Below are positions 25,195-59,174 of a DNA stretch of 64,000 nucleotides, one piece after another. Location of the stretch: positions 47,058,001 through 47,122,000 of the forward strand of contig OX597822.1 in assembly GCA_951406725.2 (NCBI GenBank), in the 5' to 3' direction. Each line of letters opens with the position of its first letter. The stretch's first letter is position 1. Below the pieces are notes generated by a model. It was not told the DNA's origin. It was given only the letters and a program-made list of their open reading frames with translations, and did no database searches. The DNA comes from Octopus vulgaris. Taxonomy: Eukaryota. The position numbers were made by a program, and so were the translations under genes.

Positions 25195-25597
25195 ATCAAA
25201 ATAAGCAACAGGATATCAAGTAGTAATGCAGTACGACCGTTACAAGTGGCTCCATTTAATTGAATAATGCTATCATTACATCAATTTAAATGCAGTGCTA
25301 TCTTCACCTGCGCAAATAAAGAAATGGAATTTTAACAAGTAGGACACATTAATATAATTTTAATATAATTTTAATATAATTTATTTTTCTTGAATACTTT
25401 AACAGAGTAAGAAGATGGAAGAAATTCTTGTTGTCGCTATTGTAGCTCCTCCTACTTGTTAAAATTCCATTTATTTATTTGTGCAGCTGAAAATAGCACT
25501 GCATTGAAATTGATGTAATGATTGCATTGTTCAATTAAATGGAGCCGCCTGAAACGGTTGTACGGCATTACTACTTGATATCCTATTGCTTATTTTG

Positions 25598-25599
<2 letters not shown>
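25195..25599. repeat. 150-bp inverted repeat (arms 25195-25344 / 25450-25599) holding a degenerate canonical type I hammerhead
   Basis: Arms are reverse complements; consensus TGCAG-CTGAAGA...GAAACGGTCGTA-CTGCA. Confidence 0.75.
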
Positions 25600-27009: not shown

Positions 27010-27075
<66 letters not shown>

Positions 27076-27717
27076 TACAGGACACCACAAATAAACGTAG
27101 AACACAACGAGAAACGAAACTATAAAAACAAACAAGGAAACGGACTTTTTTTAACAACGAAAAACAGAGTACAAGACAAACAATACAAGGAATATTCCCC
27201 TTCATCAGCTGCCCCTGGTTCGACTCAATGCGTGTTTCAAAGGTAAGGGCAGAACACGATCCGGCCGAAGCAGTCCTTCCTGCAAAATGAATTAAATAAA
27301 ATTCTTTTGCAGAGGAGCAAAAAAGGAAAGAAAAAAAGAACAGGACGTAAAAGCAATACAAATAAAAATACAGTACACATAAAGAATAAAAACGGGACAA
27401 GGAAACCAACATTGAGGGCTGTTTTTAAGCCTAGACGGTGGAAAAATTCGTTTGAAACACGCATTGAGTCGAACCAGGGGGCAGCTGATGAAGGGGAATG
27501 TTCATTGTATTGTTTGTCTTGTACTCTGTTTTTTCGTTGTTAAAAAAGTCCGTTTCTTTGTTTGTTCTTATGGTTTCGTTTCTCGTTGTGTTCTACGTTT
27601 ATTTGTGGTGTCCAGTACTCATATATATATATATATATGCATGTATATATACATAGAGATGTAGGTTGTACATATACATATGTATGTATGCATATGTTTT
27701 ATTTGTTAAATTGTTAT
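26933..27717. mobile_element. Palindromic non-coding (PLE-like) element, arms 26933-27241 / 27451-27717
   Basis: ~270-310-bp inverted arms embedded in (TA)n; homologous to the direct repeats at 27893-29137. Confidence 0.75.
27195..27258 (-). ncRNA. Putative hammerhead ribozyme with non-canonical strand order
   Basis: CGTGT-T-CTGCCCTT-a-CCTTT-GAA-ACACG-14nt-AGGGGCAG-CTGATGA-AGGGG; stem III 5 bp, stem I 8 bp. Confidence 0.7.
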
Positions 27718-28038
27718 TATATATATATATGTGTGTGGCTGTGTAGTAAGTAGCTTGCTAACCAGCCACATGGTTCCGGGTTCAGTCCCACTGCGTGGCA
27801 TCTTGGGCAAGTGTCTTCTGCTATAGCCCCGGGCCGACCAATGCCTTGTGAGTGGATTTGATAGACGGAAACTGAAAGAAGCCTGTCGCATATATTTTTC
27901 CACTGTTTATATATATATTTTTTACTGTTTATATGTTTGTACTGTCGTTACCGTCTTTCTTTTTTTACCCCTCTGCGAAAAGATCTCAGAATTTTAATTG
28001 ATTTGCTTTTCGCAGGAAGGAAGTTTTCTTCGAAGTAT

Positions 28039-28101
28039 ACGTCTCGCTTTTATCCTTCGAAACGTTTAGTAGATGAAACCTTAGCGACTGAAGAAGGGGA
28101 T
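28039..28101 (+). ncRNA. Putative hammerhead ribozyme with non-canonical strand order (copy 2a)
   Basis: ACGT-C-TCGCT-ttt-ATCCTTC-GAA-ACGT-17nt-AGCGA-CTGAAGA-AGGGGAT; GUC cleavage triplet. Confidence 0.72.
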
Positions 28102-28876
28102 TTTTCGTTGTGCTTATTGTCCTGTATCTCTTTTTTTGCTTGTCTTGTTCCTTGGTTTGTGTCTATGTTTTTCGTCTCTCTATGTGTTCGACGTCTTTTT
28201 GGTGTCCTGTACACATATATGCGTGTATATGTACATGTAGAGGTAGGTACGTACATATATGTTTATATATATGCATATGTTCTATTTTATTAACATATTA
28301 TACGACTAAACGCACGCACCCTATTAAGTAAGATTGTTCTGTTTATCAAGTTAGCCTTGATATTAACTCTCACGCGACTCTGCATCTTTCTTTCTTTCTC
28401 TCCCATTCCCTTTTTCGTCTTTTTTCCCTCACTTAACTTATCTCTTCCTCTCTCTCTCCCCCTCACCGTTCTTCATGGTCTCCTCGCACCATTCCCCTTC
28501 TTCTCTCTCTTCCTCTTGCTCCTCCTCCCCCATTCCCGTCGTCCATCTGCGACGATACTTCCGTCGTAACTGCTATCCTGTCTTTTCTCGCCCGCCTTCT
28601 AAGGCTACTGGTCGACATTCTTTCTCTCTCGTCGTCCACTATAATCCAGCGTTTGCAATACTTTTTTCGTCTGGCGTTAACAGCCCTTCTTATCTTGTTC
28701 TCCTTGTCCTGTCTCTCACTGTTATATATTTATTTTTCCACTGTTTATATATATATTTTTTACTGTTTATATGTTTGTACTGTCGTTACCGTCTTTCTTT
28801 TTTTACCCCTCTGCGAAAAGATCTCAGAATTTTAATTGATTTGCTTTTCGCAGGAAGGAAGTTTTCTTCGAAGTAT

Positions 28877-28939
28877 ACGTCTCGCTTTTATCCTTCGAAA
28901 CGTTTAGTAGATGAAACCTTAGCGACTGAAGAAGGGGAT
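28877..28939 (+). ncRNA. Putative hammerhead ribozyme with non-canonical strand order (copy 2b)
   Basis: Identical to 28039-28101. Confidence 0.72.
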
Positions 28940-29130
28940 TTTTCGTTGTGCTTATTGTCCTGTATCTCTTTTTTTTGCTTGTCTTGTTCCTTGGTTTGTG
29001 TCTATGTTTTTCGTCTCTCTATGTGTTCGACGTCTTTTTGGTGTCCTGTACACATATATGCGTGTATATGTACATGTAGAGGTAGGTACGTACATATATG
29101 TTTATATATATGCATATGTTCTATTTTATT

Positions 29131-29217
<87 letters not shown>

Positions 29218-39385: not shown

Positions 39386-39820
39386 ACGCTACTGATTAAC
39401 CACGTTGTCAACAACTGCGAAACAATGTTTTCTAGATTTAGCGTTTTACAATGATATTGGGTCCCGTGCACAACTTCGATTTTCTGGGAAGATAAGTATG
39501 CCACATCAGGAATGTTGGTGTTGATAAGACACACTCTAAAGACGGCGAAGTTTATGTTAGTGCTCTTTGGCAATTGGTCAGCAATCATTTTCATAGTCGT
39601 CATCTTCATCATCGTCGTCGTCATAGTTCTCCTCCTCCTCCTTCTCTTTCTCCTCTACCACATCATCGTCATTATCATCATCAATGTTGTCATCATCGTT
39701 ATCATCATCATCAAGTGTCGTCAGCATTCTCTGCAGTTTAAATGCTGTCCTGCCCCTCATACATTTCAATTTATTTTAAATCCGTCCAATTCCACCAACG
39801 GAATTCTGGGACTTCCGTTT

Positions 39821-42470
39821 CCTCTTTGATCTTTTTCGGCACCCTCTTTGATCTTTTTCGGAACCCTCTTTGATCTTCGTCGGCACTCCTCTTTGATCTT
39901 TTTCGGCACCCTCTTTGATCTTTTTCGGCACCCTCTTTGATCTTTGTCGGCACCCTCTTTGATCTTTTCGGCACCCTCTTTGATCTTTTTCGGAACCCTC
40001 TTTGATCTTCGTCGGCACTCCTCTTTGATCTTTTTCGGCACACTCTTTGATCTCTTTCGGCACCCTCTTTGATCTTTGTCGGCACCCTCTTTGATCTTTG
40101 TCGGCACTCCTCTTTGATCTCTTTCGGTACCCTCTTTGATCTTTGTACAACCTCATCTTTGATCTCTTTCGGCACCCTCTTTGATCTTTGTCGGCACCCT
40201 CTTTGATCTTTTTCGGCATACTCTTTGATCTTTGTCGGCACCCTCTTTGATCTTTGTCGGCACTCATCTTTGATCTTTTTCGGCATCCTCTTTGATCTTG
40301 GTCGACACCCTCTTTGATCTTTGTCGGCACCCTCTTTGATCTTTTTCGGCACCCTCTTTGATCTTTTTCGGCACCCGCTTTGATCTTTATCGGCACTCCT
40401 CTTTGATCTCTTTCTGTACCCTCTTTGATCTTTGTAGGCACTACTCTTTGATCTTTTTCGGCATCCTATTTGATCTTTGTCGGCACCCTCTTTGATCTAT
40501 TTCGGCACCCTCTTTGATCTTTGTCGGCAACCTCTTTGATCTTTGTCGGCACCCTCTTTGATCTTTGTCGGCACTCCTCTTTGATCTATTTCGGTACCCT
40601 CTTTGATCTTTTTCGGCACCCTCTTTGATCTTTGTCGGCACTCCTCTTTGATCTCTTTCGGCACCCTCTTTGATCTTTGTCGGCACTACTTTTTGATCTT
40701 TTGGGCATCCTCTTTGATCTTTTTCGGCACCCTCTTTGATCTTTGTCGGCACTCCTCTTTGATCTCTTTCGGCACCCTCTTTGATCTTTGTCGGCACCCT
40801 CTATGATATTTGCCGACACTCCTCTTTAATCTCTTTCGGCACCCTCTTTGATCTTTGTCGACACTCCTCTTTGATCTCTTTCGGCACCCTCTTTGATCTT
40901 TGTCGGCACCCTCTTTGATCTTTGTCGGCACCCTCTTTGATCTTTGTCGGCACCCTCTTTGATCTTTGTCGGCACCCTCTTTGATCTTTGTCGGCACTCC
41001 TCTATTATCTTTTTCGGCACCCTCTTTGATCTTTTCGGCACCCTCTTTGATCTTTTTCGGCACCCTCTTTGATCTTTGTCGGCACCCTCTTTGATCTTTG
41101 TCGGCACTCCTCTTTGATCTTTGTCGGCACCCTCTTTGATCCTTTCGGCAGCCTCTTTGATCTTTGTCGGCACTCCTCTTTGATCTATTTCGGCACCCTC
41201 TTTGATCTTTTTCGGCACTACTTTTAAATCTTTTCGGCATCCTCTTTGAATTTTTTCGGCACCCTCTTTGATGTTTTTCGGCACCCTCTTTGATCTTTGT
41301 CGGCACTCCTCTTTGATCTCTTTCGGCACCCTCTTTGATCTTTGTCGGCACCCTCTATGATCTTTGTCGGCACTCCTCTTTAATCTCTTTCGGCACCCTC
41401 TTTGATCTTTGTCGACACTCCTCTTTGATCTTTTTCGGCACCCTCTTTGATCTTTGTCGGCACCCTCTTTGATATTTGTCGACACCCTCTTTGATCTTTT
41501 TCGGCACTCCTCTTTGATCTCTTTCGGCACCCTCTTTGATCTTTGTCGGCACCCTCTTTGATCTTTTTCGGCACCCTCTTTGATCTTTGTCGGCACTCCT
41601 CTTTGATCTTTTTCGGCACCCCTTTGATCTTTGTCGGCACTACTCTTTGATCTTTGTCGACACTCCTCTTTTATCTTTTTCGGCCCCTCTTTCATCTTTT
41701 TCGGCACCCTCTTTGATCTTTGTCGGAAATCCTCTTTGATCTTTTTTGGCACCCTCTTTGGTCTTTTTCGGCACCATCTTTGATCTTTGTCGGCACTCCT
41801 CTTTGATCTTTTTCGGCACCCTCTTTGATCTTTGTCGGCATTCCTCTTTGATCTTTTTCGGCACCCTCTTTGATCTTTTTCGGCACCCTCTTTGATCTTT
41901 GTAGACACTCCTCTTTGATCTTTGTCGGCACTCCTCTTTGATCTTTTTCGGCACCCTCTTTGATCTTTTTCGGCACCCTCTTTGATCTTTTTCGGCACCC
42001 TCTTTAATGTTTCTCGGCACTCCTCTTTGATCTTTTTCGGCACCTTCTTTGATCTTTGTCGGCACCCTCTTTGATCTTTTTCGGCACCCTCTTTGATCTT
42101 TTTCGGCACCCTCTTTGATCTTTGTCGACACTCCTCTTTGATCTTTGCCGGCACTCCTCTTTGATCTTTTTCGGCACGCTCTTTGATCTTTGTCGGCACC
42201 CTCTTTGATCTTTTTCGGCACCCTCTTTGATCTTTGTCGGCACCCTCTTTCATCTATGTCGGCACTCCTCTTTGATCTTTTTCGGCACCATCTTTGATCT
42301 TTGTCGAACCTCCTTCTTTGATCTCTTTCGGCACCCTCTTTGATCTTTTTCGGCACCCCCTTTGATCTTTTTCGGCACCCTCTTTGATCTTTGTCGGCAC
42401 CCTCTTTGATCTTTTTCGGCACTCTCTTTGATCTTTGTCGGCACCATCTTTGATCTTTGTGGGCACTCCT
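39821..42470. repeat. 2.65-kb minisatellite of 22/23-bp units (~120 copies)
   Basis: Unit ACCCTCTTTGATCTTT(T/G)TCGGC with ACTCCTC.. variant; source of the KIKEGAEKDQRG pseudo-ORFs. Confidence 0.95.
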
Positions 42471-42684
42471 TTGAAATACAGGTACAACAGAAACAGGAAG
42501 TAAGAGTGAGAGAAAGTTGTGGTGAAAGAGTACAGCAGGGATCACCACCATCCCCTGTTGGAGCATCGTGGAGCTTTAGGTGTTTTCGCTCAAAAAACAC
42601 TCACAACGCCCGGTCTAGGAATCGAAACCGCGATCCTACGACCGCGAGTCCGCTGCCCTAACCATTGGGCCATTGCGCCTCCAC
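42468..42684 (-). mobile_element. Family C SINE 5' part, fused to the minisatellite
   Basis: Homologous to 6890-7092; junction at a shared CTTTGA. Confidence 0.9.
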
Positions 42685-43809: not shown

Positions 43810-43810
<1 letters not shown>

Positions 43811-44100
43811 TGTATATATATATTTATTGTTTTTACGTATTTTTGTATTTTTATTCGTGTACATCGTCCGTTTTCCGCCCTTGTGTTGCATACATTCGAG
43901 GCTTTCTTCCAAGGGATCTAATGCGCTTGGCTTAGATTTCCCTTGGGGGCTGCCCAGATCGGAGCAATCTCAAGATTAATCAGCCGAAATTGCGAAGATA
44001 ATCCTGTTCTTGACTGATGATTGAGGGCTTCGAATGTCCCGTCCTGTGTTTCTCGTGTCGTCTTCTAGGTGTTTCACGTTCTTGTCCCAGTTTGTATATA
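43810..44100 (+). mobile_element. (TA)n-embedded non-coding repeat carrying a hammerhead-like core
   Basis: Homologous copies at 57556-57810 (-) and fragment 26785-26865 (-). Confidence 0.7.
43964..44029 (+). ncRNA. Putative hammerhead ribozyme with non-canonical strand order (copy 4a)
   Basis: GCAAT-C-TCAAGA-ttaatc-AGCC-GAA-ATTGC-14nt-TCTTGA-CTGATGA-ttgag-GGCT; perfect stems III and I, AUC triplet. Confidence 0.72.
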
Positions 44101-44259
44101 TTTTTTTAACTTTTACATATATATATATTCCCTTCTTTCCTGAGCGTCAATAATACTTTAATTGTTCCACGTCCTGCGTTGCTGTGTTTTTTCCCTTTTT
44201 TTCTCTTTTTTTCTGTGTTTTCTTGTTTGGATTAACTTTATATACATATATATATATAC

Positions 44260-44375
<116 letters not shown>

Positions 44376-58670: not shown

Positions 58671-58925
58671 TCAATATATATTCCAAGAAAGTTAGAGGTT
58701 GTGAATCCAACCAACTAAGGGATAATATATATCCAATATACTGCTGGTAGAATACCCAATTATTAATACATAAGTGTTTTTTTATTGCATTGTAATTAAA
58801 TTTCCGAGTGTACTAAATGGGTGAAGGTAAAGATATATTATATATATATATATATGTGTGTGTGTCACCAACTGTGCAAACAACATGAAATACGTAAAAG
58901 CAGGACAAGTAAACACGGAGAAGGG

Positions 58926-58986
58926 ACCCTTCATCAGTTGTCGACTGTCTACCTGCTCCACATTTCGAGCATTCAACGACAATGTG
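58926..58986 (-). ncRNA. Degenerate hammerhead-like motif with non-canonical strand order (copy 3)
   Basis: CACAT-T-GTCG..GCTC-GAA-ATGTG-15nt-CGACAA-CTGATGA-A-GGGT; flanks resemble the 27-29 kb elements. Confidence 0.55.
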
Positions 58987-59174
58987 AGTCTTCAAAGACA
59001 GTTGCTTTCATAAATTCTAAAATAAAATTCAGGATTTATGGATGGTCAAAGTTGGGAACAAAAACACGACAGTGGAAACATACAAGGAAACCGAATAAAA
59101 ACAAACATGGAGGGTCGTTAAACCAGAACGAGAGGAAAATAGTGAACGCTGGATATATATATATATATATATTC

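Follow-up and report, generated by a model that had tools for sequence, protein, structure and literature searches.

A split-core, non-circularly permuted hammerhead ribozyme predicted in a young non-autonomous Penelope-like element of Octopus vulgaris

Judged from sequence, an insertion at 27893..29137 of a 64,000-nt stretch of the Octopus vulgaris genome (the window; contig OX597822.1, positions 47,058,001 to 47,122,000, forward strand) is probably a non-autonomous Penelope-like element (PLE) of Naiad ancestry, whose 839-nt unit is predicted to carry a working hammerhead ribozyme of a topology that appears to be undescribed. By its predicted features the family, here called F1, is a non-autonomous Penelope-like (retrozyme-type) element, a type of element already known. 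The insertion and its surroundings are laid out as follows:

27735..27888, + strand: host dispersed repeat (family D9), which we take to be a SINE; its TA tail received the F1 insertion
27893..29137, + strand: whole F1 insertion, 1.48 monomers, putative non-autonomous Penelope-like/retrozyme-type element
27893..28298, + strand: upstream copy, 5'-truncated (the first 'repeat')
28299..29137, + strand: full 839-nt monomer; 5' half pyrimidine-rich, 3' end fixed
29138..29161, + strand: (TA)n target at the fixed 3' end of the insertion
28043..28044, + strand: predicted cleavage site 1 (GUC^U), by analogy with hammerheads
28881..28882, + strand: predicted cleavage site 2, by the same analogy
28044..28881, + strand: predicted excised monomer RNA, 838 nt, 40% GC

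The locus comprises 1.5 head-to-tail copies of an 839-nt non-coding unit inserted in (TA)n. Two near-identical direct repeats of about 406 bp had been described here by the first-pass annotation, and they are present: 27893-28298 (406 nt) and 28731-29137 (407 nt) differ by no substitution and by a single 1-nt indel in a T run, and the match reaches back to 27890 with one mismatch at 27892. At 30 fetched F1 loci the unit had the same length of 839 nt and the same terminal base, in most cases with further units, or a partial copy whose length varied, in front of it, and most of the 30 other loci shared the partial-tandem layout with different 5' ends. Because the unit is fixed at 839 nt and the preceding copy varies in length, the repeats are best understood as the overlap of a 1.48-mer. 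A reading of the 406-nt repeats as LTRs was rejected, as they are merely where a 5'-truncated second copy overlaps the first, and their length differs at every locus. The annotated retrozyme or PLE partial-tandem architecture thus survives as a Penelope-type partial tandem, but the repeat is only the overlap with a truncated copy. Downstream of the 3' end lies (TA)n, in which a target-site duplication around the insertion is not readable, and other copies of the host repeat continue into (TA)n at 27883-27895. Tandem copies share one constant junction between units, and arrays contain up to four units, those exceeding the fetched locus length being undercounted. In one four-unit array (L140-L143; G000:C1:18814867-18820400) the scanned cores have a C11.1-to-U change in common, so its units probably came from one template. 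Consistent with the annotated absence of coding capacity, no Pfam family was found in the longest reading frame of the element, nor was a PLE-type ORF (N-terminal GIY-YIG, CxC, DKA, RT) found within it.

F1 is young and present in at least 1,300-1,700 copies. In the 2.8-Gb genome searched, the core pattern had 1,297 exact matches and the 3' 38-mer 1,725, with none in controls; a 428-nt middle part had 1,157 candidate copies, of which the 40 scored were 98-100% identical over their whole length. The monomer in the window differs from the 29 closest other copies at 2-14 positions, compared with no substitutions between the two local repeats; the median divergence within arrays, one substitution (23 pairs, badly aligned pairs included), carries no weight here. 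Recent insertion had been deduced from the identity of the repeats; the family is indeed young, but such identity is expected if a single insertion event copied both, and youth is therefore better shown by the 40 dispersed copies. The monomer junction was present in contigs from three of four public runs, and contigs of one run, which we guess to be RNA, follow the monomer through the junction, where a circle, a tandem and DNA look alike. That an assembly duplication or chance resemblance accounts for these observations is scarcely credible: the exact core matches without control matches, the same layout at many loci and the covariation of stems across families (below) effectively refute it at the level of the family, and a duplication at the locus itself is unlikely.

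The predicted ribozyme occurs once in each repeat, with the following parts:

27968..28099, + strand: predicted split-core permuted hammerhead, copy 1
28806..28937, + strand: predicted split-core permuted hammerhead, copy 2 (identical strands, +838)
27968-72, + strand: copy 1, helix IV 5' strand
27973-28015, + strand: copy 1, hairpin V
28016-21, + strand: copy 1, P (stem II 5' strand), G10.1 = 28016
28022-38, + strand: copy 1, Y
28039-42, + strand: copy 1, stem III 3' strand
28043, + strand: copy 1, C17
28044-48, + strand: copy 1, stem I 3' strand
28053-58, + strand: copy 1, stem II 3' strand
28059-62, + strand: copy 1, GAAA
28062-65, + strand: copy 1, stem III 5' strand
28066-82, + strand: copy 1, Z
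28083-87, + strand: copy 1, stem I 5' strand
28088-94, + strand: copy 1, CUGAAGA
28095-99, + strand: copy 1, helix IV 3' strand

The annotated GUC sites do end at 28043 and 28881, and the predicted monomer between them (28044-28881) is 838 nt as had been stated; it is predicted to be about 46% paired as a circle, with z = -4 for the linear fold. The blocks occur in the order cleavage site (S), GAAA (G), CUGANGA (C), which is non-circular. A descriptor covering the six block orders matched three times on both strands of the 64-kb window (twice in F1 and once in a neighbouring element), against 0.2 matches in each of ten shuffled windows; all three motifs were in the order S-G-C, and over 50 loci there were 63 SGC, two CGS and one CSG matches. 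Rfam gave no hammerhead at the F1 locus, either at gathering score or at E<=10, and in the window as a whole nothing at gathering score; relaxing the threshold to E<=10 added only sub-threshold matches, of AT-repeat miRNA type and others. Given the block order and the lack of an Rfam match, a type I, II or III hammerhead was rejected. Of the intact-looking core reported by the first-pass annotation, the predicted cut sites stand, but the motif is not the canonical hammerhead of retrozymes and PLEs; it is predicted to be non-circularly permuted with a split core.

The case for the split core comes from pairing across 14 families, six from the octopus genome and eight from metagenome Naiad-type contigs. 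Pairs were counted by descriptor, without a covariance model, because MAFFT failed to align the upstream helices across families. Stem I has 68 Watson-Crick pairs, two G-U pairs and no mismatch in 70 cells; stem III has 53, three and none in 56; and stem II, when built with the upstream strand P, has 70, none and none in 70, a score partly built into the descriptor, which required four Watson-Crick pairs. Positions in all three stems show up to four pair types, the pairs G10.1-C11.1 and A15.1-U16.1 are invariant, and so are the core nucleotides of CUGANGA, GAAA and NUH. When P was not required it was still found 21-32 nt upstream of the cut in all seven representatives, with a chance of 1-6% each, and it always begins with the G10.1-C11.1 pair to the strand before GAAA. 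Hairpin V lies flush 5' of P, and flush 5' of V lies the helix IV strand, which pairs with the bases right after A9; helix IV was better than random strands (p<=0.05) in seven of nine representatives and failed in two. The Y/Z helix at the distal ends of stems I and II beat shuffles in two of seven own-genome representatives and is clear by eye in several metagenome loci.

The conserved pairing, then, indicates that CUGANGA is not joined to stem II, two extra helices lying between A9 and G10.1. A bridging form occurs in two metagenome loci, L257 and L273, where C is followed by two hairpins and then by P, S and G, the hairpins falling exactly between A9 and G10.1. The octopus linear order is IV'-V-P-S-G-C-IV and, given those two loci, would represent the same molecule opened in helix IV; on this predicted structure the motif is what results when two helices are inserted between A9 and G10.1 of a type CSG and the chain is opened inside helix IV. 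Two further loci missed by the descriptor are, by eye, a bridging form like that of L257 (L267) and a split-core-like form with a G-U-rich stem I (L261).

A plain type-SGC hammerhead in the sense of Eckert et al. (2023), with stem II formed by the AGGGG strand directly after CUGAAGA and the upstream helices serving as accessories or belonging to another state, was our first reading, dropped when Naiad tails showed an upstream partner for stem II. The order S-G-C and the short linker agree with it, and in F1 a stem II of 4-6 bp with G-U pairs (-5.2 kcal/mol) is possible with the strand after A9. Across the 14 families, however, this canonical partner gives 26 Watson-Crick pairs, 15 G-U pairs and 29 mismatches in 70 cells; within F1 it is the strand after A9 that drifts, P and II' being constant; and a better partner for that strand is the one flush 5' of hairpin V (-9.2 kcal/mol). 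We consider this alternative quite improbable. More improbable still is a conventional circularly permuted hammerhead spanning both repeats, for example a type II made of the GAAA of copy 1 together with the cut site and CUGAAGA of copy 2. A tandem formally allows such an arrangement, and PLEs are reported to contain dimeric hammerheads, but it requires an 800-nt loop and the weak stem II, and leaves unexplained both the covariation of P, IV and V and the finding of the motif as a single copy in 3' regions of Naiad type.

Elements with the split-core motif or similar to those that carry it lie elsewhere in the window:

27030-27663: F2, an inverted pair of 3' ends; full split-core motif predicted on the - strand, cut site 27253
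about 43810-44260, + strand: F3a, same predicted fold with different stems, cut site 43969
about 58870-59150, - strand: degenerate copy resembling family F4, with a better copy in L065

F2 has 382 exact core matches in the genome, its copy in the window having C11.1 changed to U, and a relative of F3a is found in L107. The window also contains a long minisatellite (39766-42600), with open frames on the - strand and pyrimidine-rich on the +, and an inverted repeat (25195-25599) with 150-nt arms that are 91% complementary, which may represent a MITE or the end of an inverted PLE. The octopus genome likewise contains a type I hammerhead family of the conventional kind (L018, L021).

The 5' ends of dispersed F1 insertions bear indirectly on cleavage. 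We mapped 75 insertions from the first 100 matches listed for the 3' 38-mer, with the last five rows left out, two groups unanchored and arrays collapsed. Twelve of the 75 begin 4-13 nt after the predicted cut, where 1.7 would be expected (P = 2e-7), and the best other 15-nt window holds six; none begins exactly at the predicted cut, and half of the twelve map to a TAT microhomology with the target. Read-through is frequent, as 48 of 60 insertions pass the first site (80%) and seven of seven pass the second. By subfamily, the pile-up comprises nine of 31 copies in a sister subfamily (b) and one of 24, equal to background, in the subfamily of 27893..29137; five copies are left unassigned, two of them ending in the pile-up window. 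The pile-up fits cut linear templates combined with frequent read-through, although stalling of the reverse transcriptase in stem II could be another source of these ends.

The extent of read-through and the absence of a pile-up in the subfamily of 27893..29137 lend some weight to a different account, in which a real, conserved fold cleaves hardly at all in this subfamily, and the element moves as uncut linear transcripts by template jumping, with no circle. A competing inactive fold is predicted in the same subfamily, where pairing of Y with the GAAA strand (-8.5 kcal/mol) rivals that of P (-8.9), and PLE hammerheads are reported to be often slow in vitro. This account has difficulty with the invariant monomer junction and the arrays of three to four units, which would be hard to regenerate from ever-shorter linear templates, and with the full fold being retained in 21 of 30 sampled cores, several of the misses being visibly 5'-truncated. 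We judge it unlikely and prefer a ribozyme that cleaves.

The connection to Naiad elements begins with the octopus Naiad itself. In the portions of the Naiad description available to us (PMC8557442), Naiads are reported to lack canonical hammerheads and bear only the marks 'HHR_core' or 'HHR_half_core', the latter in eight Naiads including Naiad_Ovul; their target is (TA)n, and cephalopod Naiads are called long inactive. The 3' tail of Naiad_Ovul has the same predicted ribozyme fold as F1, and a motif taken from that published element has 244 exact matches in the genome and none in controls. By eye, the supplement of that paper contains the split-core form in nine records (six distinct) and, in six, a clean type CSG whose bridging helix is long, among the positions inspected there (occurrences 26-60 of 62 of CTGATGA and places 5-14 of three other core words); of these only Naiad_Ovul was inspected in full, the others being assigned from adjacent headers (Aacu, Anas, Movir, Hcon, Nbra) or from their position in the file. 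Several Naiad records in the same supplement have a C-run directly 5' of CUGANGA for which the excerpt shows no partner close by, perhaps a variant with longer-range pairing.

A script-based test used 80 metagenome Naiad-type loci chosen by N-terminal GIY-YIG, CxC and DKA motifs. Where at least 150 nt followed the match, the motif was found in six of 65 3' regions, in none in antisense and in none over five rounds of shuffling; scans of whole loci found it in nine of the 80, seven split-core and two bridging. The remaining 71 loci gave no match, many of these loci being incomplete, and a scan of the 80 for a U3-A8 core variant returned one implausible match, inside an ORF. In a quick reverse transcriptase (RT) tree, with SH-aLRT support only and the octopus row as a long branch, motif-bearing loci fall in three branches, one of them with the octopus Naiad, and two large clades have none. 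At the level of predicted folds, the motif marks many, not all, Naiads. In the octopus genome a degenerate RT pattern had eight matches, all on the forward strand and all broken, and the motif lies about 1.4 kb downstream in three of these eight loci of old Naiad RT remnants. The domains of a Naiad-type ORF are found in the metagenome relatives and are broken in an octopus family (F5).

F1 shares with Naiad PLEs the (TA)n target, 5' truncation and partial tandems, features also common to other PLE clades. Its monomer had no BLAST match to the Naiad tail or to two young Neptune-type families, and no intact Naiad was found in the octopus genome (best candidates scored among 140, 54 and 135 protein matches); the link between F1 and Naiad is consequently one of RNA fold and target only. 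On balance we lean towards a wider interpretation, in which many Naiads carry non-circularly permuted hammerheads, including an active form with two helices between A9 and G10.1 and a plain CSG in apparently nematode records; the CSG could be the source of Eckert's two orphans, and in octopus the ribozyme would drive several non-coding retrozyme families via self-clamped circular RNA, the 5' ends of insertions recording cleavage in vivo. The published CSG-1 and CSG-2, described from DNA metagenomes only in the portions of PMC10085705 at hand, have a layout like that of the CSG motifs of Naiad tails and may come from Naiads.

Under the mechanism that we propose, read-through transcripts would be cut after GUC, and the 5' part of the monomer (I', GAAA, CUGANGA) and its 3' part (V, P, III') would be clamped together by stems II, III, IV and Y/Z, so that ligation to a circle would be favoured. 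A PLE reverse transcriptase/endonuclease acting in trans would prime at (TA)n, always starting from the point that lies 256 nt beyond the cut; run-off on cut linear templates would give inserts of about 250 nt, and continuation past uncut or ligated sites would give one to four units. Circular templates for PLE tandems were proposed by Cervera & de la Pena (2014). A search with the GIY-YIG family yielded a young, intact Neptune-type PLE family as a candidate helper, and a second such family is also present:

L316-L321 (e.g. G000:C16:20835500-20841500): young intact Neptune-type PLE, 781-aa open frame, copies 91-99% alike, candidate helper
L339, L341-L345: second young Neptune-type PLE, long open frames, pyrimidine-rich tail

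The split-core ribozyme is absent from both. In the first, a motif resembling a minimal type I hammerhead, its core of the U3-A8 kind, lies near the 3' end in two of six loci matched; the second has a motif resembling a minimal hammerhead, which L343 and L344 each contain twice. As a point against predicted cleavage, Li et al. (2026; 10.64898/2026.07.22.740005) report, in the part of their text available, that only one of nine predicted retrozyme dimers cleaved.

Measured against the accounts of non-LTR retrozymes available to us in part (PMC7229834; 10.64898/2026.07.22.740005), F1 is alike in its non-coding head-to-tail units with one hammerhead each, its low GC, its lack of LTRs and its predicted excised monomer, and retrozymes are thought to ride on PLEs. 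Those elements, however, are defined by type I hammerheads, of which the F1 unit has none; their units are mostly 150-450 nt (51-972 in Li et al.) as opposed to 839 nt; and their circular RNA is abundant and highly self-paired, whereas F1 is only about 46% paired by prediction, mostly dispersed and 5'-truncated. Descriptors for type I miss its non-circular, split-core ribozyme. The plant LTR retrozyme has fixed LTRs and a type III hammerhead, in contrast to F1, where repeat length varies by locus. With the types SGC and CSG of Eckert et al. (2023; PMC10085705, in the portions seen) F1 shares the cyclic block order, a short linker between strands of stems I and II and, as a candidate feature, a helix bridging the distal ends of those stems. 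There, 1-2 nt are held to be the most that can separate CUGANGA from its stems, and the genomes of known organisms supplied no example of SGC or CSG; in F1, by contrast, the link between CUGANGA and stem II is interrupted by two helices, and the carriers are animal retroelements in more than 1,000 copies. The Naiad PLEs of PMC8557442, as far as the excerpts go, resemble F1 in the (TA)n target, partial tandems and inverted truncated copies, and differ in that F1 has no ORF, no sequence similarity to the Naiad tail and a young age, where cephalopod Naiads are long inactive. The PK hammerhead (Zhan et al. 2024; PMC11300833) also tolerates extra helices around stem II, but in the portions consulted the short stem of one loop there still consists of A9-G12 and G10.1-C11.1, and no break after A9 is described. 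A literature search with subscription journals outside its scope, and with sources seen in part, found no hammerhead with helices between A9 and G10.1 and no permuted hammerhead in Naiads; as far as these sources reach, the split-core architecture and its presence in Naiad tails appear undescribed.

Current descriptors and Rfam miss these motifs, and counts of invertebrate retrozymes are therefore probably too low. If our reading is true, it would extend hammerhead topology beyond the six permutations proposed in 2023, through a break in a link assumed to be unbreakable, and would place non-circular permutations in animal genomes at high copy. It would also answer the puzzle of Naiads apparently devoid of hammerheads, and thereby inform the question of whether self-cleavage is needed by PLEs. 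The many F1 insertions would moreover let cleavage and read-through be followed in the genome itself, for use with the circular-template model proposed for partial tandems of PLEs.
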